64,000 bases of DNA from a virus, in the IMG/VR virus record IMGVR_UViG_3300027857_000001, positions 1 to 64,000 of that record. One strand, 5' to 3'. Positions 6,146 through 28,910 of the stretch are shown one piece after another (position 1 is the stretch's first letter; each line of letters begins with the position of its first letter). The notes under the pieces are model-generated. The model did not search any database, was not told the DNA's origin, and worked only from the letters and a program-made list of their open reading frames with translations. The position numbers and the translations under genes were made by a program.

Positions 6146-6565
6146 ATGCTGAAGCGGGTCACATGGCGGAGCTGGGCCGTGCTCGCGGTCCTCGCCGGCG
6201 CCTACGCTGCCCTCGGGTTCCTGCTGGGCCGCAACGGAGTCATCGAGGAGGAGATCTACAAGTGGGGGCTGCTCGGAGCATCCGCCGCCCCGTTCGCGCT
6301 CGTCGCCGCATACACCGCTTCGGGGAACCGCTGGTGGGCGAACGACGTCGGCAGCGCGATCGTCCAGATCAAGCTGTGCGTCGCGCTCCTCGTCGTCCCG
6401 CTGACGTGGGTGTTCTGGGTGGACGGCGGCATCCTCAGGCCCGGCTGGCTGGCGTGGGCCGAGGTGTCCGCCCCGGCCCTGGTCGCGCTCGCGCTGCTGC
6501 GGCTCTGCTGGGTGTTCTGGCGCATCCACCGGGCCGGTGGCGGCAGGAAAGGACCGGAGAGTTGA
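6146..6565 (+). CDS. Multi-pass membrane protein (putative holin)
   Basis: About 4 hydrophobic segments; lysis-cassette context. Confidence 0.55.
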   Translation: MLKRVTWRSWAVLAVLAGAYAALGFLLGRNGVIEEEIYKWGLLGASAAPFALVAAYTASGNRWWANDVGSAIVQIKLCVALLVVPLTWVFWVDGGILRPGWLAWAEVSAPALVALALLRLCWVFWRIHRAGGGRKGPES

Positions 6566-7071
6566 CGGAGCCCGCGAACGGCCACGCAGCCGCGCACACT
6601 GAACGGCGTACGCTCCGGGAGACCGTCGCGTACCCGCCGCACGGCCCGCGCGAATCTGACCCGCATTACGGGATTTTCGAGCATGCGAAACACCATCTCG
6701 TGCACGTGCTCGGCGCGGGGTGCTGGATCGGCGGCGCGACGCTCGCCCAGGTGAAGGCCGGGCTGCCCGGAGGGCACCGCTGCGCAGGCGCAGCCCAGCT
6801 CGAGGCGCACCACGCTGTAGCCGAGTTCGCGGGGCTGAATGAGATCGACTGGCAGAAGGTTGCCGCGGACTTCCCGCAGGCTGGCCTCCATTCGGACGAG
6901 GAATTCAAAGCCTTCGCCAATAGCGAAGGCGGCCTGCTTATCCTCTGCGATGTCCACCATCGCCATCCGGGTAAAGGAATCCACAGCGTCACATATCCGG
7001 CATGGCTGCTTGATAAGTACGCGAAGGACGAGTGGGAATTCCTCCCGGATCAGGACCGGAGCGGGACGTGA
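6562..7071 (+). CDS. His-rich HNH-like protein
   Basis: TTG start overlapping the previous stop; LEAHH and LCDVHHR...GIH motifs resemble an HNH metal-binding core. Confidence 0.5.
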   Translation: MTEPANGHAAAHTERRTLRETVAYPPHGPRESDPHYGIFEHAKHHLVHVLGAGCWIGGATLAQVKAGLPGGHRCAGAAQLEAHHAVAEFAGLNEIDWQKVAADFPQAGLHSDEEFKAFANSEGGLLILCDVHHRHPGKGIHSVTYPAWLLDKYAKDEWEFLPDQDRSGT

Positions 7072-7412
7072 CGGCTCCTGGCGGCAGCGGGGCACCCCAT
7101 ACACGGCTCGACAGGGTGCTCGGCTGCGTTCCCCGGTTCCTGTCCAGCCACGTCCACGTGATCTGGCTCATCGGTCTCGGCGTGTACCTGATCGTCCTGC
7201 CACTAGCCGGCGTGAAGGTGAGTGCCAGCGCAGAACTGATCGGCGGCAACTACACCAACGTAACCTCGGACATCGGGGCGTGCATCGCCGCCGGCGGCAC
7301 CCTGACCGCGCTGAAGCATGCCCGCAAGTCGCACCGGATCATGGCAGACCTGTACAGGCGGCACACAGGCCAGGATCACCCGGATGCCCCGCCCGGAGGC
7401 AGCCCGCCGTGA
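7068..7412 (+). CDS. Membrane protein (2 TM)
   Basis: GTGA overlap; IWLIGLGVYLIVLPLAGV hydrophobic stretch. Confidence 0.5.
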   Translation: MTAPGGSGAPHTRLDRVLGCVPRFLSSHVHVIWLIGLGVYLIVLPLAGVKVSASAELIGGNYTNVTSDIGACIAAGGTLTALKHARKSHRIMADLYRRHTGQDHPDAPPGGSPP

Positions 7413-15030: not shown

Positions 15031-15415
15031 CCGTGCCCTAGGAGGGTTCGGCGAAACCCTTAGCTCCTGGTAGGCGGTGCGGGCAGGGGCTTGCCGGGTG
15101 GGGCTGACCCCAGATTCCGGTACTGGTTACCCCAGGAACGTGAAGAACGGGCGGCAGGTGATCTGCCGTCCGGTCTTGCTGTCTGCGGTGACTGCCTTGA
15201 CGTTCGACGTCACGCCACGCCTTGGCTGGCTTCCGGGTGTACGCCGCCTCCGGTTCTTACCCCGGGCGTGTCTGCCCGGTCTCCGGTGTCGCCGGGCACG
15301 GGGCGGGACTCCTGCTCGCGGATGACCTCGGTGAGCCGCTGCTGGAGCTGAAAATTTATGATCCTTACCCCAAAGGCGCGCGCCCAAGGCTGACAAGCTT
15401 GGTATACATGCGCCC

Positions 15416-15592
15416 ATGGACGACCTGCTGTATGGAACCTCCCAGGAGGACGGCAACTACTCGCATGCCGTTGACCCGTCTGACCGCACCGTCAGTATCT
15501 GCGGGAGGATTCAGAACCCCACGGTGAACGGGGAGTCATGGGCAGATGCCCCAGCGCCGCGCTGCCAGGAGTGTACGGCGCAAGCGCGCTGA
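15416..15592 (+). CDS. Small putative Zn-binding protein (58 aa, not in ORF track)
   Basis: MDDLLYGTSQEDGNYSHAVDPSDRTVSICGRIQNPTVNGESWADAPAPRCQECTAQAR: H...CG...CxxC pattern; ends just before a terminator. Confidence 0.45.
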   Translation: MDDLLYGTSQEDGNYSHAVDPSDRTVSICGRIQNPTVNGESWADAPAPRCQECTAQAR

Positions 15593-15606
15593 CGGCTGAT
15601 GTATCG

Positions 15607-15646
15607 AACGGGACGGCCGCCTGCATGGCCGTCCCGTTTCCGTTTT
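15607..15646. terminator. Terminator hairpin (shared with element B)
   Basis: AACGGGACGGCC / GGCCGTCCCGTT stem plus T-rich tail; near-identical inverted copy at 28369-28405. Confidence 0.75.
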
Positions 15647-15680
15647 GGCGCGGCGCTTGACGGCTACTGTTGCTGCTTGG

Positions 15681-15872
15681 CTAGCTGGGGGCAGTCTCCC
15701 GCTTGAACACGAACGGCGGCTGGAGGCTGATCAGTTCCCAGCCTTCGTGGCCGAGGGCGTTGAGGATTCCCTCGATCTCGTTGACGTGGTTCTTCTCTAC
15801 TGAATCGGCCAGGCTCTTGTGGGTGCCGCCGACCATGACGGTTCCCCTGCCGAGGACCTTGTACTCTGGCAT
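15681..15872 (-). CDS. DUF4177-like small protein
   Basis: EYK...IEGILNALGHEGWELIS...FKRE. Confidence 0.6.
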   Translation of the reverse strand: MPEYKVLGRGTVMVGGTHKSLADSVEKNHVNEIEGILNALGHEGWELISLQPPFVFKRETAPS

Positions 15873-15909
15873 GCTGGTCTTCCTTCCTCGTGGTGCTTGC
15901 CGGCCCGGC

Positions 15910-16404
15910 CTACTGGCCCGACTGGATGGGGAACTGGACGGGCGCCATGGGTGTCTGGATCGCCCTGATCGCGTAGGTAGCCATCTCCTTGCTATCGAGC
16001 CACAGTACGAGCGTGTACATGCCGGGCGCCGGGATCTCGACGTTGGTCACGGTGACGGCGAACGGCACCTGTGCCGGGTCGCCGAAGTGGGCCTCCAGCG
16101 ACGGTGCGGTGCGGAACCCCGCCTCGACGCGGACCGGCAGCTCCTGGCCGTTCTCGCCGCGCACGCCGACGCGGATCATCCGGTCGGTCATGGTGTCCTG
16201 GAACGGAAGTTCGAGCACTGCGGTGATGCCGAGCGTTGGCACGAGCGCCGGGAAGGCGTGGAAGCGCAGCAGCGTGATGAACCCGCCGTTCACGTACACC
16301 TTGCCGTCTGCCCCTGAGGCAGCGTGGTCGGATGCGAAGAACGCCACGACCCTGGTTGCTGTCAGCCGGGCTGGCGAGTCGGGGGCGGTGCTCTCCTGTG
16401 TCAT
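15910..16404 (-). CDS. DUF6941-like Ig-fold protein
   Basis: DHAASGADGKVYVNGG...PAPGMYTLVLWLD. Confidence 0.55.
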   Translation of the reverse strand: MTQESTAPDSPARLTATRVVAFFASDHAASGADGKVYVNGGFITLLRFHAFPALVPTLGITAVLELPFQDTMTDRMIRVGVRGENGQELPVRVEAGFRTAPSLEAHFGDPAQVPFAVTVTNVEIPAPGMYTLVLWLDSKEMATYAIRAIQTPMAPVQFPIQSGQ

Positions 16405-16454
16405 ACACGAATGATATCTTCTGTATTACCAAGGCTCAAGCAGAGGAGGGCAAG

Positions 16455-16802
16455 TTGCTCGACGTGGGGAAGTACGACCTGATCGACTGGGATGACCCGG
16501 AATCCGACCCGGACCCGGCCACGAACAACCTTCTCCACTGCCAGCAGGCGGACCACCTCGGAGCGCAGGCTGAGCTGGTCGTGTACGAACTGCTCGCCGG
16601 GGTATGGGCCGAGGTGAACTTCAAGACCATGACCGCGCAATGGGCCATCGTGGGGCTGGCACTGTCCCGGGTGTGGCTCGTACTGTTGAAGGAATCGGAG
16701 AAAAGAGGCGACTGGCTCCGCCCGGTCACCGGGTGGCCGGCCGAGACCGCTGAGATCCGGCAGTGGGAGAAGCTGACCGGGCAGAAATGGAGGGGACGAT
16801 GA
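16455..16802 (+). CDS. BrnT/RelE-like toxin candidate
   Basis: TTG start after GAGGAGG; DWDDPE..NNLLHC...WAIVG...WLVLL...RPVTGWPA pattern; ATGA-coupled to an RHH gene. Confidence 0.4.
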   Translation: MLDVGKYDLIDWDDPESDPDPATNNLLHCQQADHLGAQAELVVYELLAGVWAEVNFKTMTAQWAIVGLALSRVWLVLLKESEKRGDWLRPVTGWPAETAEIRQWEKLTGQKWRGR

Positions 16803-17092
16803 CCGCCGACCGCCCCCAGGGCCTGATAGAAGACGCCGGGCAGGCCGGGAAGCCGCGCCGCCTGGACCAGATGGTGTCCGCCCGGCTCGACCCGCCGCTC
16901 GTCGCGGCACTGCGACGCTTCGCCAAGAGGCGCGGCATCACCTTCAGCGACGTGATCCGGCTGGCCAGCCTGAACCTGCTGGCCCGCGAGGACGCCCAGA
17001 ACGTCATCGTCTTCTCAGTCCGGGTGACCAACGAGACACTGCCGAAGGCGGTCACCCGTTCGTACTGCGAGGAAATCCCGGCCGCCATCTGA
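16799..17092 (+). CDS. Ribbon-helix-helix (CopG-like) antitoxin candidate
   Basis: QMVSARLDPPLVAALRRFAKRRGITFSDVIR. Confidence 0.6.
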   Translation: MTADRPQGLIEDAGQAGKPRRLDQMVSARLDPPLVAALRRFAKRRGITFSDVIRLASLNLLAREDAQNVIVFSVRVTNETLPKAVTRSYCEEIPAAI

Positions 17093-17252
17093 TCATCCGG
17101 GCCCAGCCCGGCGTTGTGCGGGGCTGCCATCCGCTGCGGAAATCGAATGTGTGGCCGTGCCGGCTGGCGGGTGTTTCCGGGGTTTCCCTCATCCGCCCCG
17201 GCGCGGGAGCGTACCTGTCCGCATGCCCGGTGGTCCGGCCGGCACGGCCGGC

Positions 17253-17663
17253 TCAGTTACCCGGTGGCGGGGTGGGGATGAGTGCCCATGCGGTGCGCCC
17301 GGTGTCGTCCCCGGTGATACCCCAGTTGCCGGGTCCGGTGAGGATCTCGGTCACGTCGAGTCCGTGTGCCCGCCCGTCCGCGTGGCGGCCTCGCCGCCAT
17401 GGACCGCCGGCGTCCTCGACCTCGATCCGGATGTGACCGTGGCGGATCTCGGCGCGGAGGGTGAACTTACCGCCGTTCCCGGACGCGGAATGGAGTATGG
17501 CGTTGGTGGCGAGTTCGGATGCGACTAAGGTCGCGTCGTCGGCGGCGGGATGGCCGTGCAGCGCCTGTGTGAGCGCGCGGCGCGCGTGGCTGACTTGTGC
17601 GGGTTCTGCGGGGTAGGTTCCCTGGAACCGTCTGGTGCCGGGTGGTGCCGCCGTGTCGTCCAT
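17253..17663 (-). CDS. RsbW-like HATPase (ATP-binding protein), copy A
   Basis: LVASELATNAILHS, IRIEVEDAGG, GRAHGLDV, GRTAWA; divergent from XRE. Confidence 0.85.
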   Translation of the reverse strand: MDDTAAPPGTRRFQGTYPAEPAQVSHARRALTQALHGHPAADDATLVASELATNAILHSASGNGGKFTLRAEIRHGHIRIEVEDAGGPWRRGRHADGRAHGLDVTEILTGPGNWGITGDDTGRTAWALIPTPPPGN

Positions 17664-17780
17664 CGTGTCCCCTCCGTGCTGTGCTGGCCTATTGCCGATC
17701 ACACAGTGAAGGGGCACGCTTTAGCTACGTGACCGAACTGCCCGCCACGATCCGCCACGGTGATTCTGGAGGCATGCCAC

Positions 17781-18611
17781 ATGACACGGCGCGACCCTGA
17801 CACCGACCCGCGTGCGTTCCTGGGCGGCGAGCTTCGGCGCGGCCGGATGGCTGCTGGTTTCTCCAGCCAGGAGGCGCTGGCCGCCAAGCTCGGGTTCGAC
17901 AGGACCGTTGTCACGAAAGCGGAGACAGGGAAGCGCCCGCCCACGGCGGACGTGCTGGTGGCGTGGTGCGTGGCGTGCCGTATGGACGAGGAACTATTCA
18001 CGCGGCTGGCCAGGCTGGCGCGTGCCAGTGACGGGCCGGTACCGACGTGGTTCGAGGACTGGCTTGAGGCTGAGGGTGAAGCTCAGTCCCTCCGGATCTG
18101 GTCCCCGACCCTGATACCGGGACTGCTCCAGACAGCGGACTACGCCCGTGCGCTGTTCCTGGCCGCGCAGTCCGACACCAGCGATGACCTGATAGACGGG
18201 CTCGTCACGGCGCGGCTGGAACGGCGGGCGATCCTGGACCGCGCCGGCCCGCCTGATGTGGTGGTGGTCCTGGACGAGGTGGTCCTGCACCGGCTGATCG
18301 GCACGCACGAGATCATGCGGGACGCGCTGGTGCAGGTCGCGGAACTGTCCCGCCGGCCGAACGTCGTTGTGCAGGTGATCCCCGCATCTAACGGCGCTAA
18401 CGCGGGCCTCGGCGGCGCGTTCGACATCGCGGCGGCGGACGGCATGCCGGACACGCTGCGGATGGAAGGCGTGGAAGACCAGACGATAGAGAAGCGCTCC
18501 CTGGTGCGCAAGGCGGCGGTAGCGTTCGACCGGGTGCGCGGGGACGCGATGTCACGGGGACAATCGAGAGACCTGATTCTGAAGGTGGCAGAGGAAATAT
18601 GGAAGCCATAG
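17781..18611 (+). CDS. XRE HTH-DUF5753 regulator (WhiJ/Scr1-like), copy A
   Basis: N-terminal XRE HTH; IPGLLQTADYARA, ARLERRAIL and VLDEVVLHRLIG motifs. Confidence 0.9.
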   Translation: MTRRDPDTDPRAFLGGELRRGRMAAGFSSQEALAAKLGFDRTVVTKAETGKRPPTADVLVAWCVACRMDEELFTRLARLARASDGPVPTWFEDWLEAEGEAQSLRIWSPTLIPGLLQTADYARALFLAAQSDTSDDLIDGLVTARLERRAILDRAGPPDVVVVLDEVVLHRLIGTHEIMRDALVQVAELSRRPNVVVQVIPASNGANAGLGGAFDIAAADGMPDTLRMEGVEDQTIEKRSLVRKAAVAFDRVRGDAMSRGQSRDLILKVAEEIWKP

Positions 18612-18808
18612 ACCACGGCTGGCGCAAGGCCAGCTACTCAGGGAACGGCGGAGGCAACTGCGTCGAAGTGGGGCAGGACGCGGACGGGACGATCCTGGTC
18701 CGCGACACCAAGGACAGCGGCACCGGGCGAGTGCACCGCATCTCATCGGCTGACTGGCGCACGTTCCTGGCACGTGTGCGCTGCGGCGATCCCGGCACGC
18801 ATGGTTAG
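18599..18808 (+). CDS. DUF397 protein (BldB/Scr2-like), copy A
   Basis: WRKASYSGNGGGNCVEVG...VRDTKD...W..FL..V. Confidence 0.92.
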   Translation: MEAIDHGWRKASYSGNGGGNCVEVGQDADGTILVRDTKDSGTGRVHRISSADWRTFLARVRCGDPGTHG

Positions 18809-18968
18809 GGCTGTTATCGCATCGGATGAACCTCGTTATCCGCTCTCTCTGGTTTTAGCCCAGTGCGGGTGATTACTGTACCCTCATGGCACCAGGATCG
18901 TCACTTGGAATGCTGCGGCTGACGAGGCTTACGTTCTGTGCGCATCCAGTTGCTGGGCCGGGAGCATC

Positions 18969-19484
18969 GTGATGACACTCCCAGCTTGGACGGAAGTGGG
19001 TTTACTACCTGCTGGCGCGCACCGGTCAGACATGCCTGGCATTTATGACCGCTTCGTGCTTGATGCCCCGCATCGGGATCACCGGGAACTGCTGTTCAGC
19101 GCGTTGACAACACATCTCCGGCTAATGCAAAGGATCATTCCTGCTGGCGTAGCTTGGATAGATGGAAGCTTCGCCACGTGCAGAGAGGAACCACCGGAGG
19201 ATGTGGACGTGGTGGTCCTGCCGATGGACTGGGCTGCGGTCAGGTCGCTGCCTGATGTGGCGCGCATGAACCTTCATGCGCTCCTGACCCTCAAGGAGGT
19301 CTCCATCGCGCACCCGGAAGACCTCTGGTTCTCCAGGTTGCAGCCCATAGGCGGCCTGGTAGACGCCTACCTGTGCGCACCTGGCCAGGAGGCGACATGG
19401 CAGGAGACGTGGTCGCGGGTAGTCGATGCTAAGGGTGTGGTCATCGATGGCCAGGTCAAAGGCTTTGCGGAGGTGACGTGGTGA
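18969..19484 (+). CDS. DUF6932-like minimal nucleotidyltransferase
   Basis: GLLPAGAH N-terminus; WIDGSFAT...PEDVDVVV (GS-DxD). Confidence 0.7.
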   Translation: MMTLPAWTEVGLLPAGAHRSDMPGIYDRFVLDAPHRDHRELLFSALTTHLRLMQRIIPAGVAWIDGSFATCREEPPEDVDVVVLPMDWAAVRSLPDVARMNLHALLTLKEVSIAHPEDLWFSRLQPIGGLVDAYLCAPGQEATWQETWSRVVDAKGVVIDGQVKGFAEVTW

Positions 19485-20359
19485 CCAAGAGCTTCAGCGA
19501 GGCCCGGCAGGAGATCACGGGCGACTCGTGGCTGGACAAGCTGGCCCGCGCGTCGCTGCTGGCTGCGGAGGCGAAGTTTTCCGGCCGTGAGATTCCGCTA
19601 CTCCGGGTTGTCGTCTCCGGGGTGCGCACTATCGATGCTTACGACTCGTCGCAGGTCACAAAGGCTGTCCAGGACGCGACTGCGAAACTCGGCCACACAA
19701 TCAGCTTCCCTAACGCGGACAGGTCCAGCGCACTCGCCGCCGACCGCGAACGGGCACGATTGATCCAGCGAGGCCAGACCGGCAACGTGATCATCTTCGG
19801 GTTCCCTGAGCCCAGGACCCACGAGGACATCCTTGGTCTCACCGTTGAGACGCTTGCGGAACGGGCAGTCCGGGAACTTGTCAGTGTGCTCCCAGGATCG
19901 ACGGATGACGATGCCTCGCTCGACGCAGTGCTGGCTCAGCGCCTGACCGTCCGTAATGCAGTCAACGACATCGCGCGCGCGGTGCCGCAAAGTGCGGCCG
20001 GCCTCGGATTTCACATGGCCTCGGCTGACGGCGAAGAGATCGACTCGGTTCTCTCACAGGAGCAAGCGACGGTTCTCAAGAGCAGCCTCGGTGAATCGCG
20101 GGTTGACCGCCGCACGGTGACGGTTGCCGGCCGTCTGGACGGGGTTCGCACAAAGCGCCGCATCTTCTACCTCGAACCGGATTCAGGCCCAGAAATTCAT
20201 GGCGCTATAGAACTGGAGCTGATGGAGACGGTTAGGGCCAGTCTCGATCAGCGCATTATTGCCACGCTTGAGGAAGAGCGCACGCGGACCCTCGCTGGTC
20301 GGCAGAGTGGCCGCCTGTTCCGCCTTGTCAGGATCGAGTCGGCCCCAGGAATTTTCTAA
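19478..20359 (+). CDS. Hypothetical partner of the nucleotidyltransferase
   Basis: Translationally coupled; C-terminal beta-rich TVAGRLDG...IFYL region. Confidence 0.6.
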   Translation: MVTKSFSEARQEITGDSWLDKLARASLLAAEAKFSGREIPLLRVVVSGVRTIDAYDSSQVTKAVQDATAKLGHTISFPNADRSSALAADRERARLIQRGQTGNVIIFGFPEPRTHEDILGLTVETLAERAVRELVSVLPGSTDDDASLDAVLAQRLTVRNAVNDIARAVPQSAAGLGFHMASADGEEIDSVLSQEQATVLKSSLGESRVDRRTVTVAGRLDGVRTKRRIFYLEPDSGPEIHGAIELELMETVRASLDQRIIATLEEERTRTLAGRQSGRLFRLVRIESAPGIF

Positions 20360-20497
20360 GCAGTGGAAATTCCGGGGCGTCTGTGCATCCTTTTTGTCAG
20401 ACCCTGCCGCTATTATCGGAGTGAGAAGAAAAGGAAATAGCAAGCGGCCCCCGCGACGCGCCAACGTCCGAGGGCCTGGACCAAGGAGCGCAACTCC

Positions 20498-21595
20498 ATG
20501 GCCACTCCGACCATAGCACGCGACGCGTCGCACGTCGCCGCTCTGCTCGACAGCCCTGAGATCGCCGCGCTGATCGGTGAGCTTGAGGCGACCCGGTGGA
20601 CCGGCCGTCCCGGCTACCCGCTCCGCTCCCTGCTCGGCCTGGTCCTGGTCAAGAGCGTGTACTGTATCCCGACGTGGACCCGGGCCGTGTCCCTGGTCCG
20701 TGACCATGCCGCGCTGCGGGACGTGCTCGGCGCTGCCCCGTCCACGGACGCGTGCTACAGGTTCGCCCGCAAGCTCCGCAAGCACAGCGCAATGCTGGCG
20801 GAATGCACCACGCGGATTCTCGGGGAACTGCATTCCCTGCACCCGGATATGGGCAGCACCGTTGCTATTGACGGCTCGGATCTTCCCGCTTACGCGAACG
20901 GGCAGAAATACGTTTCCCGTGGCGGGAAACTTCGGGAGCGGTTCTCGGACCCGGATGCGTCATGGGGTCACCGCTCATCCATTTCCACCCGATCGGGCGG
21001 CGGGTACTATGGCTATAAAATTCACGCGGCCGTTGACGTCGCGACCGGGCTGCCGCTGGCGTGGGAGGTCCGGACTGCGAAGGACTCAGAGATACCACTC
21101 GTGCCGGACCTGCTGGACGCCGTGACCGCGCTCGGGTTCACGCCGGGTGTCGCCGTGCTCGATCGCGGGTACGACTCGCAGGCTGTCTATGAGGAGATCG
21201 AGTCGCGGGACATCCGCCCCGTCATCCCGCTGCGTGAAACCAAGGCCGTCAAGGACGGCCAGCACCTTCCCCCGTCCTGCGACCACGGCACATGGACATT
21301 CGCTGGGTCCGACACCAGGCGGGGAGCGTCGAAGTGGCGGTGCCCGACCGGCGAGTGTAAGCCGGCGTCGGTCTGGCTCAAGGCTGACCGGCTCCACACT
21401 CTCATCCCGCGCACCACCCCACGGTGGAAGGCGTACTACCACAAGCGGTGCGCCGTCGAGCGGGAGTTCGGCGTCCTCAAGCACCAGTGGGCACTGCTGC
21501 CGCTCCGCGTCCGGGGACTCGCGAAAGTCCGCCTCCACGTGAACCTGACCATCCTCGCCCAGCTCGCCGCCGCGCTCCTCAAAGCCCGGACCTAG
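20498..21595 (+). CDS. DDE transposase (IS4/IS5/IS1182-like), element A
   Basis: VAIDGS, GYYGYKIH, VLDRGYD, YHKRCAVEREFGVLK (Y-R-E-K motif). Confidence 0.9.
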   Translation: MATPTIARDASHVAALLDSPEIAALIGELEATRWTGRPGYPLRSLLGLVLVKSVYCIPTWTRAVSLVRDHAALRDVLGAAPSTDACYRFARKLRKHSAMLAECTTRILGELHSLHPDMGSTVAIDGSDLPAYANGQKYVSRGGKLRERFSDPDASWGHRSSISTRSGGGYYGYKIHAAVDVATGLPLAWEVRTAKDSEIPLVPDLLDAVTALGFTPGVAVLDRGYDSQAVYEEIESRDIRPVIPLRETKAVKDGQHLPPSCDHGTWTFAGSDTRRGASKWRCPTGECKPASVWLKADRLHTLIPRTTPRWKAYYHKRCAVEREFGVLKHQWALLPLRVRGLAKVRLHVNLTILAQLAAALLKART

Positions 21596-21844
21596 AACCT
21601 GCCCGTCCCGCACCCCGCCGCGAGCGGGACCACCGGCATGCCCGGACACGGGAAACCCGCCTCACACGCAATTGCGCGGCCGCACGGCACCCGCTAACTG
21701 GACACAGAGGACAAAAGTCCAGGTCAGTCCGCCATCCCGCTCGATGTCAGGTCGCTCAGCACCGGGTTTCGCCGGTCCTATCGCCGATCCCTCCTAGCGC
21801 GGCTCAGTAAAGGCAGTGAAATATGAGTGTGCTAGTATCTCAGC

Positions 21845-22993
21845 GTGAGCAGCCGGGTGGTGAAGCGGGCGTACAAGTACCGCTTCTACCCGACCCCGGA
21901 GCAGGCGGAGCTGCTGAACCGGACGTTCGGGTCGGTGCGGTACGTGTACAACCGGGCGCTCGCGGAACGGTCCCGGGCGTGGACACAGGACCAGAAGCGG
22001 GTCACGTTCGCGGAAACCTGCCGGATGCTCACCCAGTGGAAAGCGGACCCGGAGACATCCTGGCTGTACGAGGTATCCAACGTCGCGCTCCAGCAGGGGC
22101 TCCAGCATCTCCAGCAGGCATACCTGAACTTCTGGGGCAAACGCTCCGGGTACCCGACGTTCAAATCGAAACGGAAGTCGCGGGCATCAGCGACGTTCAC
22201 AACCTCGGGGTTCCGCTACCGGGACGGGCAGATCACGCTGGCGAAGATGGATGTCCCGCTGGATATCCGCTGGTCCCGCCCGCCGCCCGAATGCGCGGAG
22301 CCGTCCACGGTGACGGTCAGCCGGGACGCGGCCGGACGGTGGCATGTCTCGATCCTGGTCGAGGAGACGATCGAGCCGCTTCCCCCGGCGCCAGCATCGG
22401 CGGTTGGGGTCGATGCCGGGATAACGTCGCTGGTGACCCTGTCGACCGGGGAGAAGATCACCAACCCGAAGTGCGAGAAACGGGACCGCGCCCGGCTGGC
22501 GAAGGCGCAGCGGAACCTGGCCCGCAAGCAGAAAGGCTCCCGCAACCGGGCCAGAGCGCGCGTCAAGGTCGCCCGCGTGTATGCCCGGATCACCGACCGC
22601 AGGACCGATTTCCTGCACAAGTTGTCCACGAGGATCATCCGCGAGAACCAAACGGTGATCATCGAAGACCTGACCGTCCGCAACATGCTCAGGAACCATT
22701 CCCTGGCCCGCGCGATCTCCGATGCGTCCTGGTCGGAGTTCCGCAGGCAGCTGGAATACAAGGCGGACTGGTACGGCCGCACCGTCATCGCGGTCGACAG
22801 GTTCTACCCGTCGAGCAGGACATGCTCTGCGTGCGGCCGCCTGGCCGCGTCGATGCCGCTGAACGTCCGGGAATGGGCGTGCCCCGCGTGCGGCACAGTC
22901 CACGACCGGGATATCAACGCCGCGAGGAACATACGAGCTGCCGGGCTGGCAGTGCTTGCCTGCGGAGATGGCGTAAGACCTGCCCGCACGTAG
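21845..22993 (+). CDS. tnpB: TnpB RNA-guided nuclease (IS605/IS1341 type)
   Basis: AYKYRFYPT; RuvC D (GVDAG), E (IEDL), D (DRDINAA); CxxC..CxxC Zn finger. Confidence 0.95.
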   Translation: MSSRVVKRAYKYRFYPTPEQAELLNRTFGSVRYVYNRALAERSRAWTQDQKRVTFAETCRMLTQWKADPETSWLYEVSNVALQQGLQHLQQAYLNFWGKRSGYPTFKSKRKSRASATFTTSGFRYRDGQITLAKMDVPLDIRWSRPPPECAEPSTVTVSRDAAGRWHVSILVEETIEPLPPAPASAVGVDAGITSLVTLSTGEKITNPKCEKRDRARLAKAQRNLARKQKGSRNRARARVKVARVYARITDRRTDFLHKLSTRIIRENQTVIIEDLTVRNMLRNHSLARAISDASWSEFRRQLEYKADWYGRTVIAVDRFYPSSRTCSACGRLAASMPLNVREWACPACGTVHDRDINAARNIRAAGLAVLACGDGVRPART

Positions 22994-23097
22994 TGCTGGT
23001 AGGCGACCGTCCGTGAAACAGGAACCCCGGCCCGTGAGGGCCGAGAATCCCCTCCCTGAAGGAAGGGGAGAAGTCAAGCTAGGAGGGAACCCCGAAA
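22921..23097 (+). ncRNA. TnpB omega/reRNA: scaffold ending at TCAA (23074-23077), guide from 23078
   Basis: RE hairpin CCCCTCCCTGAAGGAAGGGG followed by AAGTCAA; scaffold overlaps the tnpB 3' end as usual for this family. Confidence 0.7.
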
Positions 23098-23279
23098 CGA
23101 GCCGCGAAACTCAGCGCGGCGCGGGTTCCGGGTTCCGGAGTTAGCGTCCGGCCTGCGGTTTTGTCCTGTCTGTCCGGTAGTGCGTGTCCGCGCGGGACCG
23201 GGCGCGATCTCATGGCCGCAATTCTCGTGTCCGGGCATGCCTGCGACCCCGCCAGCAGCGGGGTAATAGGCAGGGCTGC

Positions 23280-24383
23280 CTATGTCCGGGCGATGAGCAG
23301 CGCGGATGCGAGCTGGGCGAAGATGGTCAGGTCCACGTGGAGCCGGACGCGGTAGATGCGCCGGACCCGCAGCGGCAGCGCGCCCCACTCGTTCTTGAGC
23401 CGGCCGAATTCCCGCTCCACCGCGCCGCGCTGGTGATACAGGCTTTTCCATCGGGGCGTGCTGCGCGGGATCAGGGTGTGCAGCCGGTCCGCTTTCAGCC
23501 ACGTGGACGCGGGCGTGCACTCACCGGACGGGCAGCGCCACTTGGACGCTCCCCGCCTGGTGTCGGACCCGGCGAACGTCCACGTACCGTGCTCGCACGA
23601 CGGCGGCAGGTGCTTGCCGGCCTTGACGGCGGGTGTCTGCCGCACTGGGATCACCGGCCGGATGTCCCGCTCTTCCAGCAGCGTGTACAGCGCCTGAGTG
23701 TCATAGCCACGGTCAAGGACCGCGATCGACGGGGCGAACCCGCGCCCGTTCGCGGCGTCGAGCAGCACCGGCACCGTGGGTATCTCGCTGTCTTTCGCGG
23801 TCTGCACCTGCCACGCCACCGGCAGCCCGGTCACGATGTCCACGCACGCGTGAACCTTATAGCCGTAATACCCGCCGCCGCTGCGCGTGGAAATGGACGA
23901 GCGGTGACCCCATGTCGCGTCCGGGTCGGAGAACTTCTCGCGCAGTTTCCCGCCGCGTGACACGTATTTCTGCCCGTTCGCGTAGGCGGGAAGGTCGGAC
24001 CCGTCAATAGCGACCGCGCTGCCCATTTCCGGGTTGAGGGAATGCAGTTCCGCCAGCACCTTCTCAATGCACGACGTGAGCATGTCCCCATGGGTCCGCA
24101 GCTTGACCGTGAACCTGTAGCACGCGTCCGTGGACGGGGCCGCACCCAGCACGTCCCGCAGCCCGGCGTGGTCAGCGACCAGCGCGACCGTCCGCGTCCA
24201 CGTGGGCAGGCAGTACACGGACTTGACCAGCGTGATGCCGACCATGGCACGCACCGGGTAGCCGGGCCGGCCCGTCCACCGGGTCGCCTCAAGCTGGGCG
24301 ATGAGCCCGGTGATCTCCGGGCTGTCCAGCAGCGCGGCAACCTGTGCGGCATCGCGCGGGAGTGATACGGTCGAAGCGGCCAT
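23280..24383 (-). CDS. DDE transposase, element B
   Basis: Same motifs as copy A; roughly three-quarters identical by eye. Confidence 0.9.
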   Translation of the reverse strand: MAASTVSLPRDAAQVAALLDSPEITGLIAQLEATRWTGRPGYPVRAMVGITLVKSVYCLPTWTRTVALVADHAGLRDVLGAAPSTDACYRFTVKLRTHGDMLTSCIEKVLAELHSLNPEMGSAVAIDGSDLPAYANGQKYVSRGGKLREKFSDPDATWGHRSSISTRSGGGYYGYKVHACVDIVTGLPVAWQVQTAKDSEIPTVPVLLDAANGRGFAPSIAVLDRGYDTQALYTLLEERDIRPVIPVRQTPAVKAGKHLPPSCEHGTWTFAGSDTRRGASKWRCPSGECTPASTWLKADRLHTLIPRSTPRWKSLYHQRGAVEREFGRLKNEWGALPLRVRRIYRVRLHVDLTIFAQLASALLIART

Positions 24384-24670
24384 GGAGTTGCATCTCCTGG
24401 TCCAGGCCCCCGGAGTGTTACCAGCACTCGCGGGGGTCGCCCTTTATTTCCTTTTCCCTTCTCTTCGACTATATCGCTTGGGTCTGACATTTTCAGGGGT
24501 CCTGAAAGCCGCCATCGGCAGGAATTGTTGCTTTTCTAATATGGGCGAACTCGCGGGTTAATCCGGCCGCGCGCCTGCCGCGACGATGCTGAGAAGCCGG
24601 TGTGGCGTGGACGATTGGCCACGCCTGGCTATACTCTCAAGCAGCGCCTCAAGTAGCGCAGGCTGAATCG

Positions 24671-24744
24671 TGCCCCAGGCAGGGTTCCAACCTGCGACTG
24701 TCGGCTTAGCAGGCCGGCGCTCTATGCGACTGAGCTACTGGGGC
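24671..24744 (-). tRNA. Atypical tRNA-like gene: anticodon GCT on a class I, Arg(TCT)-like body
   Basis: GCCCCAG TA GCTC AGTCGCATA GAGC G CCGGC CTGCTAA GCCGA CAGTC GCAGG TTGGAAC CCTGC CTGGGGC A folds into a full cloverleaf (one C27:A43 mismatch); no encoded CCA. Confidence 0.75.
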
Positions 24745-24974
24745 TGGAGGCTGCGGAGCCACTGGTATGGCCCCGCAGCCAGAGTTAGCCCCGGGAGGGC
24801 TGGGTGTCTGAGCCCGTCGGTCCTCCCGGGGCGGCTTCTCTCATAGGCATTCGCTCCCAACTCAGGAAGTAAGCCGCGCTCCCACCGGAGCTTAGCGCAC
24901 TGAAGGCGTGCGTGGGGCGCGGTGATGGGCTTGCCGCCTCGCGTGTCCCTCCGGGCGGATCGGTGTAGGCGCGC

Positions 24975-25901
24975 ATGTCCCTCGGCGAGTTGCTGAATCG
25001 GTCCGGTGTTCCCGCTAAGATGCTCTTGGCGACACTTGGAGGAACGGCCATGCCGAGCGCAAGGGGACACGTGAAGGACGGGAAGAGCCCGACGGCCTTT
25101 CCGATCATCCCGCTCAAGGACGTAGTGGAAATGGCGTGCCTGATTGGCCGACGGGGCGGCAGGTGCCGATTTGATGAGCTTGCCAGCTCACTGGACCAGG
25201 TCAGGACCAGCGGCGCGTTCCGGGGGCGGACGGCCGCCGGCCGTATGTTCGGTGCAACAGAGACTGTCGGCAGTGAGCTGGTCCTTACCGACATCGGACG
25301 GCGCATGGCCGCGTCGCCCTCGGACGTGGACATGCTGGCGGAAGCCTTCCTGAGCGTGGAGCTATACGGGAAACTGTTCGACCGGTACGCCGCCGACGGC
25401 GGGAAGCTGCCTGCTGTAGACGTCATCGACGTGGACATCGAGCGTCTCGGAGTACCCGAGCACCGGGCGACCAGGGCGCGTCAGGTCTTCATCCGGAGCG
25501 CAGAGACCGCCGGATTCTTCCGCTCGGGTCGCGACCGGCTCATCCGCCCCAACGGAGGTAGCATCGCAGTCGGGCGTAGTGCCGTGCCCGAGCGCAAGGA
25601 GCCTGCGGAAGTGTTTCATCCAGAAGCAGAAGTGGTGCTTGCGATGCCAACGCCGGCACCGCCGTCGCACTCACTACCGCCGTCGCACTCACTACCGCCG
25701 TTGATGCAGGCGCTGGTGGACAGACTGCCGGCTGAGGGCGAGCGGTACACACCTCAGCAGCGCGAGCACTGGCTTGAGACAGCGAAGAACGTCCTCGACC
25801 TTGTCTACGTGGATGATGCACCCGCGCCGCCGTCTGCCAGCCCGAACGGGCACACAGGCTCGTACCCGGAACCGGTGATTCAACCCGAAACGCGGGCATG
25901 A
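24975..25901 (+). CDS. Winged-helix hypothetical protein (real start may be GTG 25071)
   Basis: wHTH-like N-terminus (DELASSL...SGAFRGRTAAGRMFG...LTDIG); ARQVFIRSAETAGFF. Confidence 0.55.
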   Translation: MSLGELLNRSGVPAKMLLATLGGTAMPSARGHVKDGKSPTAFPIIPLKDVVEMACLIGRRGGRCRFDELASSLDQVRTSGAFRGRTAAGRMFGATETVGSELVLTDIGRRMAASPSDVDMLAEAFLSVELYGKLFDRYAADGGKLPAVDVIDVDIERLGVPEHRATRARQVFIRSAETAGFFRSGRDRLIRPNGGSIAVGRSAVPERKEPAEVFHPEAEVVLAMPTPAPPSHSLPPSHSLPPLMQALVDRLPAEGERYTPQQREHWLETAKNVLDLVYVDDAPAPPSASPNGHTGSYPEPVIQPETRA

Positions 25902-26182
25902 CCAAGGGGCACCCCCGGCACGGGAATGCCCCCGTATGCGCGTCCCTGAGTTCGTCGGCCTAACGGCAGGCGTCCGGACTCGTCGAGGCCGAACCCGCCG
26001 CTGCGCACCCTGGCGATGAACGCCTGCCACTCGGCCTGGGCGCAGCGGTGGACCGGCCCACTGCCGTGCTGCTTGGTGTCGCGGACCAGGATCGTCCCGT
26101 CGGCGTCCTGCCCGATTTCGACGCAGTTGCCGCCGCCGTTCCCTGAGTAGCTGGACTTCCTCCAGCCGTTCACGTTTTCCAT
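25880..26182 (-). CDS. DUF397 protein, copy B
   Basis: WRKSSYSGNGGGNCVEIG...VRDTK. Confidence 0.9.
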   Translation of the reverse strand: MENVNGWRKSSYSGNGGGNCVEIGQDADGTILVRDTKQHGSGPVHRCAQAEWQAFIARVRSGGFGLDESGRLPLGRRTQGRAYGGIPVPGVPLGHARVSG

Positions 26183-27000
26183 TTCTCTTCCGCCACCTTC
26201 ATGATCAAGTCCCGTGACTGGCCCCGTGACAGCGCATCTCCCCGCACCCGGTCAAACGCTACAGCCGCCTTGCGTACCAGTGAGCGCTTCTCGACCGTCT
26301 GGTCCTCCACGCCTTCCATCCGCAGCGTGTCCGGCATGCCGTCCGCGCTGGCGATGTCGAACGCACCGCCGAGTCCGGCGTTGGCCCCGTTGACGGCAGG
26401 GATCACCTGCACCACCAGGAACGGGCGGCGTGACCACTCGGCCACCTGCACCAGCGCGTCGTGCATCACCTGCGGCGAGCCGATCAGGCGGTGCAGCACC
26501 GCCTCGTCCAGCACCACCACGGTATCGGGCGGGTCGCCCCGCTCGAACACGGCCTGACGCTCCAGCCGCGCCGACACCAGCCCGTCGATCATGTCCTCGC
26601 TGGTATCGGACTGTGCCGCAAGGAACAGCGCCCGCGCGTACTCCGCCGTCTGGAGCAGGCCCGGTATCAGCACCGGGGACCATATCCGCAGCGACTGCGC
26701 CTCATGCTCAGCCTCAAGCCAGTCCTCGAACCACGTCGGGACCGGCCCGTCACTGGCGCGCGCCAGCCTCGCCAGCCGGGTGAACAGATCCTCATCCAGC
26801 CCGCACGCGGAGCACCACGCCGACAGCACGTCCGGTGTCGGCGGGCGCTCCCCGGTCTCCGCCTTCGTGACGACTGTCCGGTCGAACCCGAGCCGGGCGG
26901 CCAGTGCCTCCTGGCTGCTGAACCCGGCCGTCATCCGGGCCCGGCGAAGTTCCCCGCCGAGGAACGCGCGGGGGTCGGTGTCCGGGTCGCGTCTGGTCAT
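26170..27000 (-). CDS. XRE HTH-DUF5753 regulator, copy B
   Basis: About 39 differences in 276 aa versus copy A by manual comparison (~86% identity). Confidence 0.9.
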   Translation of the reverse strand: MTRRDPDTDPRAFLGGELRRARMTAGFSSQEALAARLGFDRTVVTKAETGERPPTPDVLSAWCSACGLDEDLFTRLARLARASDGPVPTWFEDWLEAEHEAQSLRIWSPVLIPGLLQTAEYARALFLAAQSDTSEDMIDGLVSARLERQAVFERGDPPDTVVVLDEAVLHRLIGSPQVMHDALVQVAEWSRRPFLVVQVIPAVNGANAGLGGAFDIASADGMPDTLRMEGVEDQTVEKRSLVRKAAVAFDRVRGDALSRGQSRDLIMKVAEEKWKT

Positions 27001-27118
27001 CGTGGCAAGCCTCCAGCAGCACAGTGGCGGATCGTGGCAGGCGCATTCGTCACGTAAACCAAGCGTGCCCTTTCACGCTGTGATCGGCAATAGCCGGCAC
27101 AGTACGGAGGGGACAGCG

Positions 27119-27526
27119 ATGGAACACACGGCAGTCGAGACCTCAATGCGGCTGCTCCATGCCGTCTACCCCGCCGAGCCCGCGCAGGTCAGGCACGCCC
27201 GGAAAGCACTCGCCGGCCTGCTCGGCGACACCCCCGTCACCGACACCGCGCTGCTGATCGCGTCGGAGTTCGCCACCAACGCCGTCCTGCACAGCGCATC
27301 CCGCAACGGCGGGACGTTCACCCTCCGCGCCGGGATCACCGGCAGCACCCTGCGGATAGAAGTGGAAGACAGCGGCGGCGCATGGAACAGCCAGCCGCAC
27401 GACGACGGCAGGCCGCACGGGCTTGACGTGATAGAGGCATTCACCGGACCCGGCAACTGGGGCATCATCGGGGACGCCGGCGGGCGCACCGCCTGGGTCT
27501 ACCTCACCATCCCCGCAGCAGGGTAG
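27119..27526 (+). CDS. RsbW-like HATPase, copy B
   Basis: LIASEFATNAVLHS, RIEVEDSGG, GRPHGLDV, GGRTAWV. Confidence 0.85.
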   Translation: MEHTAVETSMRLLHAVYPAEPAQVRHARKALAGLLGDTPVTDTALLIASEFATNAVLHSASRNGGTFTLRAGITGSTLRIEVEDSGGAWNSQPHDDGRPHGLDVIEAFTGPGNWGIIGDAGGRTAWVYLTIPAAG

Positions 27527-27739
27527 CCCGCCGACAGCACGACGCCGGGCAAGATCCAGGATGACCCCGGACCCGCCCGGCGTGGCTTGCACGTTCCTGG
27601 CCTCGTTCCGTGGAACGATTGCCGGTTGGGAACTCACGGAACGTAGCGGCCGTTCGCAGCGGCTCTGGCTACGTTAGCGCTTTCATGCTGCCGCCGGCAG
27701 CAGGCGCGCCGTTCTGTTCCCTAACCGAAAGGGAACTCA

Positions 27740-28015
27740 ATGAGCGAATTCCTGATCACGTGCGTCCGGATGAGCGGGCGCACCGCTGCGGGCCATCACC
27801 ACATCGTCAGCGTGGGCGTCGGCGGCGAGCAGTTCACCGTAGAGGAGATCTACCAGGCAATCGATGCGGGACACAGGTTCCGCACTGCGAGCCCGTCATC
27901 GGGGACGGAAGCGCCCGTAGCCAAGTACCACTGCGCCTGCGGTCTTGACACGCTCCGCTCGCACTCGGACAAGTACTGGGACAACAACCTGGACAACCTG
28001 CCTGCGTGCCCGTAA
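27740..28015 (+). CDS. DUF3892 protein
   Basis: ITCVR...HHHIVSVG...LRSHSDKYWDNNLDNLPAC. Confidence 0.8.
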   Translation: MSEFLITCVRMSGRTAAGHHHIVSVGVGGEQFTVEEIYQAIDAGHRFRTASPSSGTEAPVAKYHCACGLDTLRSHSDKYWDNNLDNLPACP

Positions 28016-28312
28016 ATCCGCATCCGTCCTGATCCAGTCAATAGCATGATCAGCCGGGAAGGGACTGGCGCGAACCGGTTCCTTCCCGGCACGCGGATGG
28101 CAGGTATAGCCCATCGCGATCGCGATCGCGTCGGCGATCCACGGGATGAACGCGTCCGCGTCGGCCACGGAAATGTCAAGGGCATACCGGCCATCCAGCA
28201 GGAGCCCGATCTTCCCGCCATTGACTGGCATCGCGTCCAGGAACGGGACCCGGTGGCCATCTACGACCACACGGTGACTCTCAAAAGGGCCAACGATCTG
28301 ATAATCGCTCAT
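27896..28312 (-). CDS. Hypothetical protein
   Basis: ORF convergent on DUF3892; globular composition in the first ~100 aa. Confidence 0.45.
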   Translation of the reverse strand: MSDYQIVGPFESHRVVVDGHRVPFLDAMPVNGGKIGLLLDGRYALDISVADADAFIPWIADAIAIAMGYTCHPRAGKEPVRASPFPADHAIDWIRTDADLRARRQVVQVVVPVLVRVRAERVKTAGAVVLGYGRFRPR

Positions 28313-28368
28313 GTCGTCAGCTTCCCCTGGCTAGCGCACGCAACGCCAGTCCCGATCAGGGGCTCTTG

Positions 28369-28405
28369 AAACGGAACGGGACGGCCATGCAGGTGACCGT
28401 CCCGT
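28369..28405. terminator. Terminator hairpin, element B copy
   Basis: Reverse complement ACGGGACGGTCACCTGCATGGCCGTCCCGTTCCGTTT versus 15608 ACGGGACGGCCGCCTGCATGGCCGTCCCGTTTCCGTTT. Confidence 0.7.
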
Positions 28406-28711
28406 CCAAGCCATGCCCTGCCGCGAATCCACAGCATCACCACGGCGAGCCGTGACGCCCCGCTTCTTCCAGGAGCACCTGCATGCCCGCGACGGAACCG
28501 GGCGGAGTGTGGTTATCCCGCATGGGTTTTCCGGAGAGGCTGCAAGGTCAGGCTGGGTACCAACGTGACCACCCCCTCACGGTCCGGGAGATGAACTCCC
28601 GGCCACCAGGGTACCCGGAACATGGGGTAGACAGCGGCCGGATCTGGGGTCCGCGCTGACCAGCCACGACACCTAACCGCAGGCCAGCACCGTTTCGCAG
28701 AACCCTCCTAG

Positions 28712-28910
28712 ATGGCAGCTCCGAAGGAAAGGCTGCTGCGTTGTGAGCGCAGCCGAGCTGCGCAAGCAGGTCCGCCGAGCACTTGAACCCGGCGCACATC
28801 AGGACCGCGTCGAACTGCCTGGCCGCTGATGCGCCGTTGCCCGCAGGCCCGGCAGGCAGCGGAACCCGGAACGTCTTGCGGATGACAAGCTTCTCCAGCT
28901 CGGTGCTCAT
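28712..28910 (-). pseudogene. N-terminal shard of a host-type protein (resembles SCO0854/MXAN_6230-type RING-domain family)
   Basis: MSTELEKLVIRKTFRVPLP...ARQFDAVLMCAGFKCSADLL; the frame runs into the element B end. Confidence 0.4.

Follow-up and report, generated by a model that had tools for sequence, protein, structure and literature searches.

Insertion sequence (IS) derivatives that carry passenger genes, the transporter IS (tIS), form an established category that was defined by the ISfinder authors (PMC9330008). The abaA/whiJ/bldB-type gene cluster is a known module of Streptomyces, and pairs of an XRE regulator with a DUF397 protein have likewise been described (PMC10294661, PMC10364602, PMC2701414). 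In the parts of these three papers that concern them, such triads are treated as chromosomal regulators and paralogues or as putative toxin-antitoxin pairs, and these parts make no mention of carriage by transposons; the pair was earlier proposed to be a mobile, toxin-antitoxin-like unit in one of them (PMC2701414). The stretch of DNA analysed here (the window) comprises the first 64 kb of the 135,301-bp IMG/VR virus record IMGVR_UViG_3300027857_000001, the ends of which are direct terminal repeats. The record is that of a tailed, high-GC (68.8%), temperate phage of a soil actinobacterium. Between positions 15038 and 28711 it contains two related elements in inverted orientation, A and B, which carry triads of this kind. 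It is very probable that A and B are two separate, diverged copies of the transporter-IS type, built on a DDE transposase of the IS5/IS1182 superfamily.

The elements are delimited by terminal inverted repeats (TIRs). A sequence-only reading of the window had proposed that four ends sharing CTAG-GAGGG are unlikely to have arisen by chance, and the statistics bear this out. The exact sequence CTAGGAGGG occurs four times, at 15038(+), 21797(-), 23079(+) and 28711(-), against a chance expectation of 0.31 in the window; none of 100 shuffles gave four sites, and the whole 135-kb record contains no further match. The related pattern CTAGGAGGGNNCNNCGA, with at most one mismatch allowed, also finds only these four end sites in the 135,301-bp record. 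With one mismatch, CTAGGAGGG is not enriched (8 sites observed, 13.4 expected), and the meaningful TIR signal is therefore confined to exact and extended matches. The tetranucleotide CTAG, which had been taken to be rare, is indeed three-fold under-represented (32 occurrences versus 101 expected). The same reading had noted that the outer (transposase-distal) ends of A and B match at 19 of 20 nt and that both transposase-proximal ends carry a second GCGAAAC, and both observations hold. The two ends of one element match at 17/20 positions in A and 16/20 in B. No TIR-like site other than the four ends was found in the window at up to five mismatches, and therefore no hidden left end is present beside either transposase.

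The proposed pairing of the ends into A (6760 bp) and B (5633 bp) is upheld by the extent of the homology between the elements. A sensitive blastn comparison of A with the reverse complement of B yields four colinear blocks, which start and stop exactly at the CTAG ends, with unrelated flanks. The blocks align 15038-15134 with 28711-28623, 15599-15694 with 28414-28321, 17258-18788 with 27525-25996, and 20395-21798 with 24489-23078. Over the shared DNA, A and B have diverged by 22-25% (about 75-78% identity). The terminator hairpin and the block upstream of the transposase that had been suggested to be common to both elements are also present: the hairpin folds have z-scores of -3.2 to -4.6, and TGTCAGACCC occurs in the window only at 20395(+) and 24489(-). 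The framework of the locus is as follows.

15038..21797, + strand: element A, 6760 bp; 15038 is its left, distal end and 21797 its right end, proximal to the transposase; TIRs and the limits of the homology with B coincide at both ends
15038..15134, + strand: left-end module of A, 20-nt TIR CTAGGAGGGTTCGGCGAAAC plus the subterminal pair ACCCCA-N14-TTACCCCA at 15107-15134, assigned from the family-wide left-end alignment
20395..20497, + strand: predicted transposase promoter/5' untranslated region (5'-UTR) block of A, with TTGTCAGACCC, an AT-rich -10-like stretch, the stem GCCCCCGCG...CGGGGGC and a ribosome-binding site (RBS), kept upstream of nearly all family transposases
20498..21595, + strand: transposase A, 365 aa, DUF772 and DDE_Tnp_1 (Pfam), DDE and Y-R-E-K motifs intact
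21596..21797, + strand: right-end module of A, tail of about 200 bp, subterminal GGCGAAAC, and the TIR, read inward CTAGGAGGGATCGGCGATAG
21798..23078, + strand: spacer between A and B, 1281 bp, an IS200/IS605-type TnpB-only element with tnpB at 21845-22993, outside both transposons
23079..28711, - strand: element B, 5633 bp, in the opposite orientation to A; 23079 is its right, proximal end and 28711 its left, distal end
23280..24383, - strand: transposase B, 367 aa, 76% identical to transposase A
24384..24489, - strand: predicted promoter/5'-UTR block of B, shared with that of A as a pair unique in the window
28623..28711, - strand: left-end module of B, ACCCCA pair at 28623-28650 and the TIR, read inward CTAGGAGGGTTCTGCGAAAC

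The transposases of A and B match the Pfam family DDE_Tnp_1 (PF01609, 1.7e-26 and 5.1e-21) and DUF772. In 15 aligned family proteins, A and B included, the residues D125, D222, E321, Y314, R317 and K328 are invariant, and the Y-(2)-R-(3)-E-(6)-K signature of the IS5 family in the ISfinder sense is present. Because these catalytic residues are kept and the open reading frames (ORFs) are full-length, both transposases look catalytically intact. The best NCBIfam match is the IS1182 model NF033551, with 137.7 bits against a cut-off of 270. The IS5 models are all below cut-off as well (NF033581, 70.8 of 140 bits; NF033579, 53.8 of 140; NF033580, 49.6 of 110; NF033578, 19.4 of 275). With 365-367 aa, the proteins are also shorter than IS1182 transposases (about 450-550 aa). 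Profile matches thus place the transposase in the IS5/IS1182 superfamily, at scores below every NCBIfam IS-family cut-off. Searches of 72,556 plasmids and of 50,697 phage records found no close homologue, and the nearest annotated plasmid proteins are IS1182 transposases with 25-30% identity. In a large protein collection, the 118 best matches besides A and B are 64-76% identical.

Related transposases were found at 18 loci in species genomes and 62 loci in metagenomes, and further loci were added by exact-protein look-ups and whole-genome searches. The same 20-nt TIR, with the family consensus CTAGGAGGGTTTGGCGAAAC, brackets the transposase on both sides and bounds about 35 distinct loci in Actinomycetota metagenome-assembled genomes (MAGs) and soil metagenomes, at variable distances and with transposases that are 56-75% identical. 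The suggestion that A and B represent a family of single-transposase, TIR-bounded units with passengers is therefore borne out, but the proposed size range of 5-7 kb was too narrow: the 26 complete distinct elements measure 2187-6760 bp, with a median of 4.0 kb. None of this resembles the compactness of IS5-type elements, which span about 1-1.5 kb and contain transposition genes only. The right TIR mostly follows the transposase stop codon after 190-220 bp, and in some elements only after 0.7-3.1 kb. On the other side, 208-5460 bp separate the left TIR from the start of the transposase in 35 distinct cases, with at least 791 bp in 34 of them. The exception, L008, is the only locus with less than 400 bp and the only one to show what would have spoken for a simple IS, a second TIR directly upstream of the gene; its left module directly adjoins the promoter block, the left TIR lies 208 bp upstream of the gene, and its right end was not recovered. 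Distant matching TIRs are thus the rule, as the sequence-only reading had expected, but the regulatory triad that it expected between them is restricted to A, B and L023.

The two ends of the elements differ from one another. In nearly all of the 26 aligned elements, the left end consists of the TIR followed, 70-100 nt inward, by ACCCCA-N14-TTACCCCA, whereas at nearly all right ends a second GGCGAAAC comes immediately after the TIR. In the window, the ACCCCA pair is found only at 15107 and 28650, and by this alignment the distal ends of A and B can be recognised as genuine family left ends. About 105 bp upstream of the transposase start are also conserved throughout the family and comprise TTGTCAGACCC, a -10-like AT-rich stretch, a GCCCCCGCG/CGGGGGC stem and an RBS. 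This block reads as the predicted promoter and leader of the transposase itself. In the leader (20395-20497, 24384-24489 and about 40 related loci) we observed a -35-like TTGTCA, a -10-like TAGAAT or TATCAT, and a GC-rich stem that adjoins the RBS; this leader may serve translational or transcriptional control of transposase expression. The two variable cargo slots that had been postulated are real positions. Slot 1 extends from the left-end module to the promoter block and contains cargo in every element but L008, so that in 34 of 35 left arms this one defined position is filled with 0.6 kb or more of additional DNA and a single arm is cargo-free. Slot 2, from the transposase stop codon to the right-end module, is less used. 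A separate observation concerns L022:8425-9469, a TIR-bounded remnant of about 1 kb with a partial, 38%-identical transposase match, to which a second TIR-like sequence adjoins at 9466; the remnant could represent a copy that has decayed or is nested.

Cargo-bearing units of the family insert whole, as seen in two relatives, L010 and L021, for which sister genomes have colinear empty CTAG-like sites. The L010 element (5797 bp) carries cargo on both sides of the transposase, and its flanks are adjacent in many of the 30 same-genus genomes that were searched. Four junctions that were fetched align without gaps to the left flank, one copy of CTAG and the right flank, the site itself being CTGG or CTCG. 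In genome G002, the element (L010:8458-14254) lies within a coding region that is uninterrupted at these four junctions; judging from the translated flank, the gene disrupted in this MAG is probably that for the exodeoxyribonuclease VII large subunit. The L021 element (3288 bp) is missing from G100, G101 and G104 at an intergenic site that contains CTA. Occupied sites thus have CTAG on both sides and empty sites a single CTGG-, CTCG- or CTAC-like tetramer, which corresponds to a short duplication of a YTAR/CTAG-type target. In both relatives the insertion comprises the entire unit from TIR to TIR, as in a tIS, and A and B share with this category the presence of passenger genes inside the TIRs of a single-transposase element. 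L010 and L100 are TIR-bounded siblings at different sites of genome G002; their transposases are 85% identical and one cargo block 89%, and the rest differs. The empty sites that the sequence-only reading had suggested looking for therefore exist for these two relatives; none was found for A or B.

A and B themselves would have arrived as whole units and could still be active. The transposase would bind both end modules, as expected from its enzyme family. A unit consists, in order, of a left module of about 100 bp (20-nt TIR and two ACCCCA), the passenger slot, the promoter block, the transposase, an occasional second slot and a right module of about 200 bp. It would be excised or copied from TIR to TIR and inserted at a CTAG-like (YTAR) site, leaving CTAG on both sides. 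Staggered cuts in CTAG/YTAR would achieve the integration, by analogy with IS5-type DDE enzymes. Both copies would have landed in a non-essential region of the 135-kb temperate actinophage, at most 50 bp to either side of a TnpB IS, and would have brought along the abaA/whiJ/bldB-type triad and other small genes and, in the case of B, a tRNA.

Several results weigh against this reading. For A and B, neither an empty site nor a second insertion site nor an excision product was found, and in the one further contig that contains these exact transposases A, TnpB and B are arranged in the same way. Compared with the family consensus, the inner ends of both elements have 4-5 mismatches, which makes their activity uncertain, and two inverted related elements only 1.3 kb apart could also be a composite or the product of a rearrangement. 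Among the relatives, the flanks of L007 are not adjacent in family-level relatives, where they lie on different contigs, and no empty site is found. The closest relative lacks the triad-bearing L023 element, but its intergenic region is shorter by about 145 bp, which makes the junction imprecise. The duplication comprises 4 bp or possibly TA only, with GG...CC termini, as the palindromic CTAG fits both. In L160 and L166, TTAG at one end is paired with CTAG at the opposite one, which leans slightly towards a TA duplication or later mutation.

The locus could also be read as one 13.7-kb composite (15038-28711) that moved by its outer, left-type ends and carried the TnpB element and the inner ends as cargo. 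The outer ends are the best-matching pair (19/20), the arrangement is formally like that of a compound transposon, and the same block is present in a second assembly. Yet with 22-25% DNA divergence A and B are not a recent duplicate pair, and each of them has complete left and right modules of the family type. The 13.7-kb block was seen nowhere else, and joining its outer flanks does not restore a gene. We therefore consider the composite unlikely; it is in any case compatible with A and B as tIS-type elements and concerns only the route by which they reached the site.

A simple IS of about 1.4 kb around each transposase (20395-21797 and 23079-24489), with the distal TIRs as solo remnants and the genes between them belonging to the phage, would have a precedent in the minimal left-end layout known from L008, and the triad, common in actinobacteria, could be resident. 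However, no TIR-like sequence is found upstream of either promoter block, the only left-end modules lie 5.4 and 4.3 kb away in the correct orientation, and the homology between A and B covers the whole unit and stops at the outer TIRs. Cargo-bearing relatives are moreover precise whole-unit insertions, and the left arms are long almost throughout the family, which leaves the simple IS very improbable. Inverted segmental duplication of a phage region without any transposition, with the CTAG ends as mere boundaries, agrees with the large inverted-repeat geometry. It is hardly credible when the same end modules and promoter block surround related transposases in unrelated chromosomes of several actinobacterial families, and when each copy has both end types. 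Two separate tIS-type copies thus remain the reading that we prefer.

The search for variants of the A/B locus itself gave few clues. Exact flank patterns had no matches in viral contigs and none in metagenome contigs. Only a single public run, probably the source, contains the region, as contigs, and the pieces break at 23078/23107 and 28711, the ends of B. Joints in this run that skip part of the locus have a shorter side of only 21-38 letters, and none of them is at the CTAG ends. Relative to the phage flanks, the summed contig depth is slightly lower over A and somewhat higher over B. Alternative junctions at A and B may be present in the sample. A plasmid DNA search with the whole of A or B returned only short transposase, DUF397 and tRNA matches.

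The passengers comprise nine ORFs in A and at least six ORFs plus a tRNA in B. Together with the shared hairpin they are arranged as follows.

15599..15650, + strand: terminator-like GC-rich hairpin followed by a T-rich run, common to B (inverted match 28375-28414), fold -30.7 kcal/mol, z -4.57
15681..15872, - strand: passenger DUF4177 protein, 63 aa, Pfam 1.8e-5, independently called in the ENA contig
15910..16404, - strand: passenger DUF6941 protein, 164 aa, Pfam 4.7e-14
16332..17092, + strand: two small hypothetical passenger ORFs, 16332-16802 and 16763-17092, from frame analysis of third-position GC (GC3), no Pfam or NCBIfam family
17253..17717, - strand: passenger HATPase_c_2 protein, AbaA-like, of anti-sigma-kinase type, Pfam 1.4e-9
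17760..18611, + strand: passenger XRE HTH_31 and DUF5753 protein, WhiJ-like regulator, Pfam DUF5753 4.9e-45
18599..18808, + strand: passenger DUF397 protein, BldB-like, 69 aa, from the Pfam tally and a precomputed hit
18969..19484, + strand: A-specific passenger DUF6932 protein, Pfam 2.3e-18
19478..20359, + strand: A-specific passenger, 293-aa hypothetical protein, no family
24670..24744, - strand: passenger tRNA gene of B, anticodon GCU, 75 nt, no long variable arm (ARAGORN; Rfam tRNA 61.8 bits)
24975..25901, + strand: 308-aa hypothetical passenger of B; a homologue with 53% identity is part of the L007 cargo
25880..26182, - strand: DUF397 protein of the B triad (Pfam)
26170..27000, - strand: XRE-DUF5753 protein of the B triad (Pfam)
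about 27119..27526, + strand: HATPase_c_2 protein of the B triad (Pfam)
27740..28015, + strand: DUF3892 passenger, overlapping the 138-aa ORF; L009 and L131 contain the same module on the downstream side of their transposases
27896..28312, - strand: 138-aa passenger ORF, overlapping the DUF3892 ORF
28375..28414, - strand: B copy of the shared hairpin, from the inverted match and the fold z-score

In both elements a HATPase_c_2 gene is divergent from an XRE-DUF5753 gene that is followed by a DUF397 gene, which is the composition of abaA/whiJ/bldB-type triads. The common backbone that had been described for A and B is thus supported by Pfam for HATPase_c_2, HTH_31 with DUF5753, DUF397 and the DDE transposase, but the description was incomplete, as B also holds the tRNA. 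Bacterial tRNA-Ser normally has a long variable arm. Short stretches similar to the B tRNA (GCU, for Ser) occur in unrelated bacterial records. The 308-aa ORF of B contains a perfect 18-bp tandem duplication at 25658-25693 (ACCGCCGTCGCACTCACT twice), which adds six in-frame codons. Atlas searches gave no function for the 293-aa protein of A or the 308-aa protein of B.

A Pfam tally of the cargo of 25 elements (102 ORFs) gave GntR 7 times, HTH_31/HTH_3 4 times, and DUF5753, DUF397, N6_N4_Mtase, Mrr_cat/NA-iREase1, DUF1508 and DUF3892 3 times each. P63C, PIN, RHH and HATPase_c_2 were found twice each and EcoRI once. Among the listed top families, PADLOC flagged only the methyltransferases. The functions of the cargo are putative. 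The XRE-DUF5753/DUF397 pair is confined to A, B and L023; the regulatory core of HATPase, XRE-DUF5753 and DUF397 is therefore not fixed throughout the family, as had been supposed, but characterises a small sub-lineage. Homologues of the A-type HATPase are present within two more distinct elements (the L007 lineage and L142) and in the unbounded fragment L172. All contigs with the exact L007 transposase share one context, and the same applies to P0016. A HATPase_c_2 gene just beyond the right TIR was observed in the P0016 and P0013 contexts, in L085/L086 (about 6200-7250) and in L186/L187, and in L085/L086 it is followed by a phage-type integrase. At these loci the insertion may have taken place next to a different mobile module, or an additional outer end may have escaped notice. 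Cargo modules recur across elements, even on the other side of the transposase, as in L009, where B 27754-28329 is found downstream of the transposase. Such a mosaic suggests that family members have recombined with one another or that parts of former compound structures were deleted.

The spacer TnpB is well above the curated cut-off of the NCBIfam TnpB model NF040570 (381.3 bits, cut-off 100) and just under that of the narrower NF038281 (406.7 bits, cut-off 425). Precomputed Pfam matches are OrfB_IS605 and Cas12f1-like_TNB. In IMG/VR viral contigs 60 relatives were found, with a homologous stretch at 21829-23031, and they share no synteny with the window. The CTAG insertion sites of the inner ends of A and B are within about 50 bp of the ends of the TnpB element. 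Beside the distal end of B, an ORF on the minus strand (28712-28910) starts at 28910 and enters the B end after 66 codons. The insertion may have cut short a phage gene here; the ORF had no homologue among the sequences compared in this analysis. The left-flank gene had no relative in viral contigs, and joining the outer flanks in silico gave no convincing restored ORF.

Taken together, the family appears new in three respects: as a clade below the curated IS cut-offs that is absent from the plasmid and phage collections, in its asymmetric end modules with a defined slot, and in its near-universal cargo. No description of this transposase family was found in the literature; ISfinder itself was outside this search, and a named relative may exist there. 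The 20-nt TIR, the ACCCCA pair, the promoter block and the second GGCGAAAC provide a sequence recipe for delimiting widespread transposons of high-GC soil bacteria, which are now annotated merely as 'transposase' beside unrelated genes. Routine cargo in IS-sized elements blurs the boundary between insertion sequence and unit transposon, and WhiJ/BldB/AbaA-type triads inside phage-borne transposon ends are a plausible spreading route for developmental or stress regulators. More tentatively, and as a possibility that we would not yet call probable, the family may be a distinct, uncurated clade of the IS5/IS1182 superfamily made up of essentially obligate cargo carriers. The slot would be filled in almost every copy and its content exchanged between copies, and the elements would serve as a general means of transport by which small modules of regulatory, restriction-modification or toxin-antitoxin-like type spread among soil Actinomycetota and into their phages. 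If so, they would offer a route for the many paralogous abaA/whiJ/bldB-type triads in actinomycete genomes.

The claim of the sequence-only reading that this layout had not been described was overstated: tIS had already been recognised as a category (PMC9330008), the transposase resembles those of IS5 and IS1182, and the triad corresponds to a known module of abaA/whiJ/bldB type (PMC10294661). The known concept is extended, not overturned. Like tIS, A and B combine one IS-type DDE transposase with TIRs around unrelated passengers, in a unit that inserts whole and with a short target duplication. Cargo-bearing forms are, to our knowledge, exceptional in described IS families, whereas here 34 of 35 sampled left arms bear cargo, and this cargo is a mosaic of regulators, methylases, restriction enzymes, PIN/RHH proteins and a tRNA. 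With IS5 of E. coli (IS5 group), the family shares DUF772 and DDE_Tnp_1 with DDE/YREK residues and a CTAG-like (YTAR) target, with CTAG on both sides. Its ends, which begin with GGA.GG...GCGAA, closely resemble those of IS5. In contrast to IS5, the elements are 2.2-6.8 kb instead of 1-1.5 kb long, their left and right subterminal repeats differ, and the best IS5 score is 70.8 bits against a cut-off of 140. IS1182 provides the best NCBIfam match (137.7 bits) and a C-terminal DDE_Tnp_1_6 match, but the match is limited to the catalytic half and far under 270 bits, and the protein has 365 aa compared to about 490. Compound transposons such as Tn5 and Tn10 are similar in that two inverted related elements enclose a segment, here of 1.3 kb. 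They differ in that the copies in the window are 22-25% diverged and each bear cargo, and the enclosed segment is an independent TnpB IS; neither a second copy of the block nor an empty site at its outer ends was found. Finally, the Streptomyces abaA/whiJ/bldB clusters have the same three domains in the same order, with a divergent HATPase_c_2 gene, then XRE-DUF5753 and DUF397, whereas the triad in A and B is located between transposon ends within a phage.

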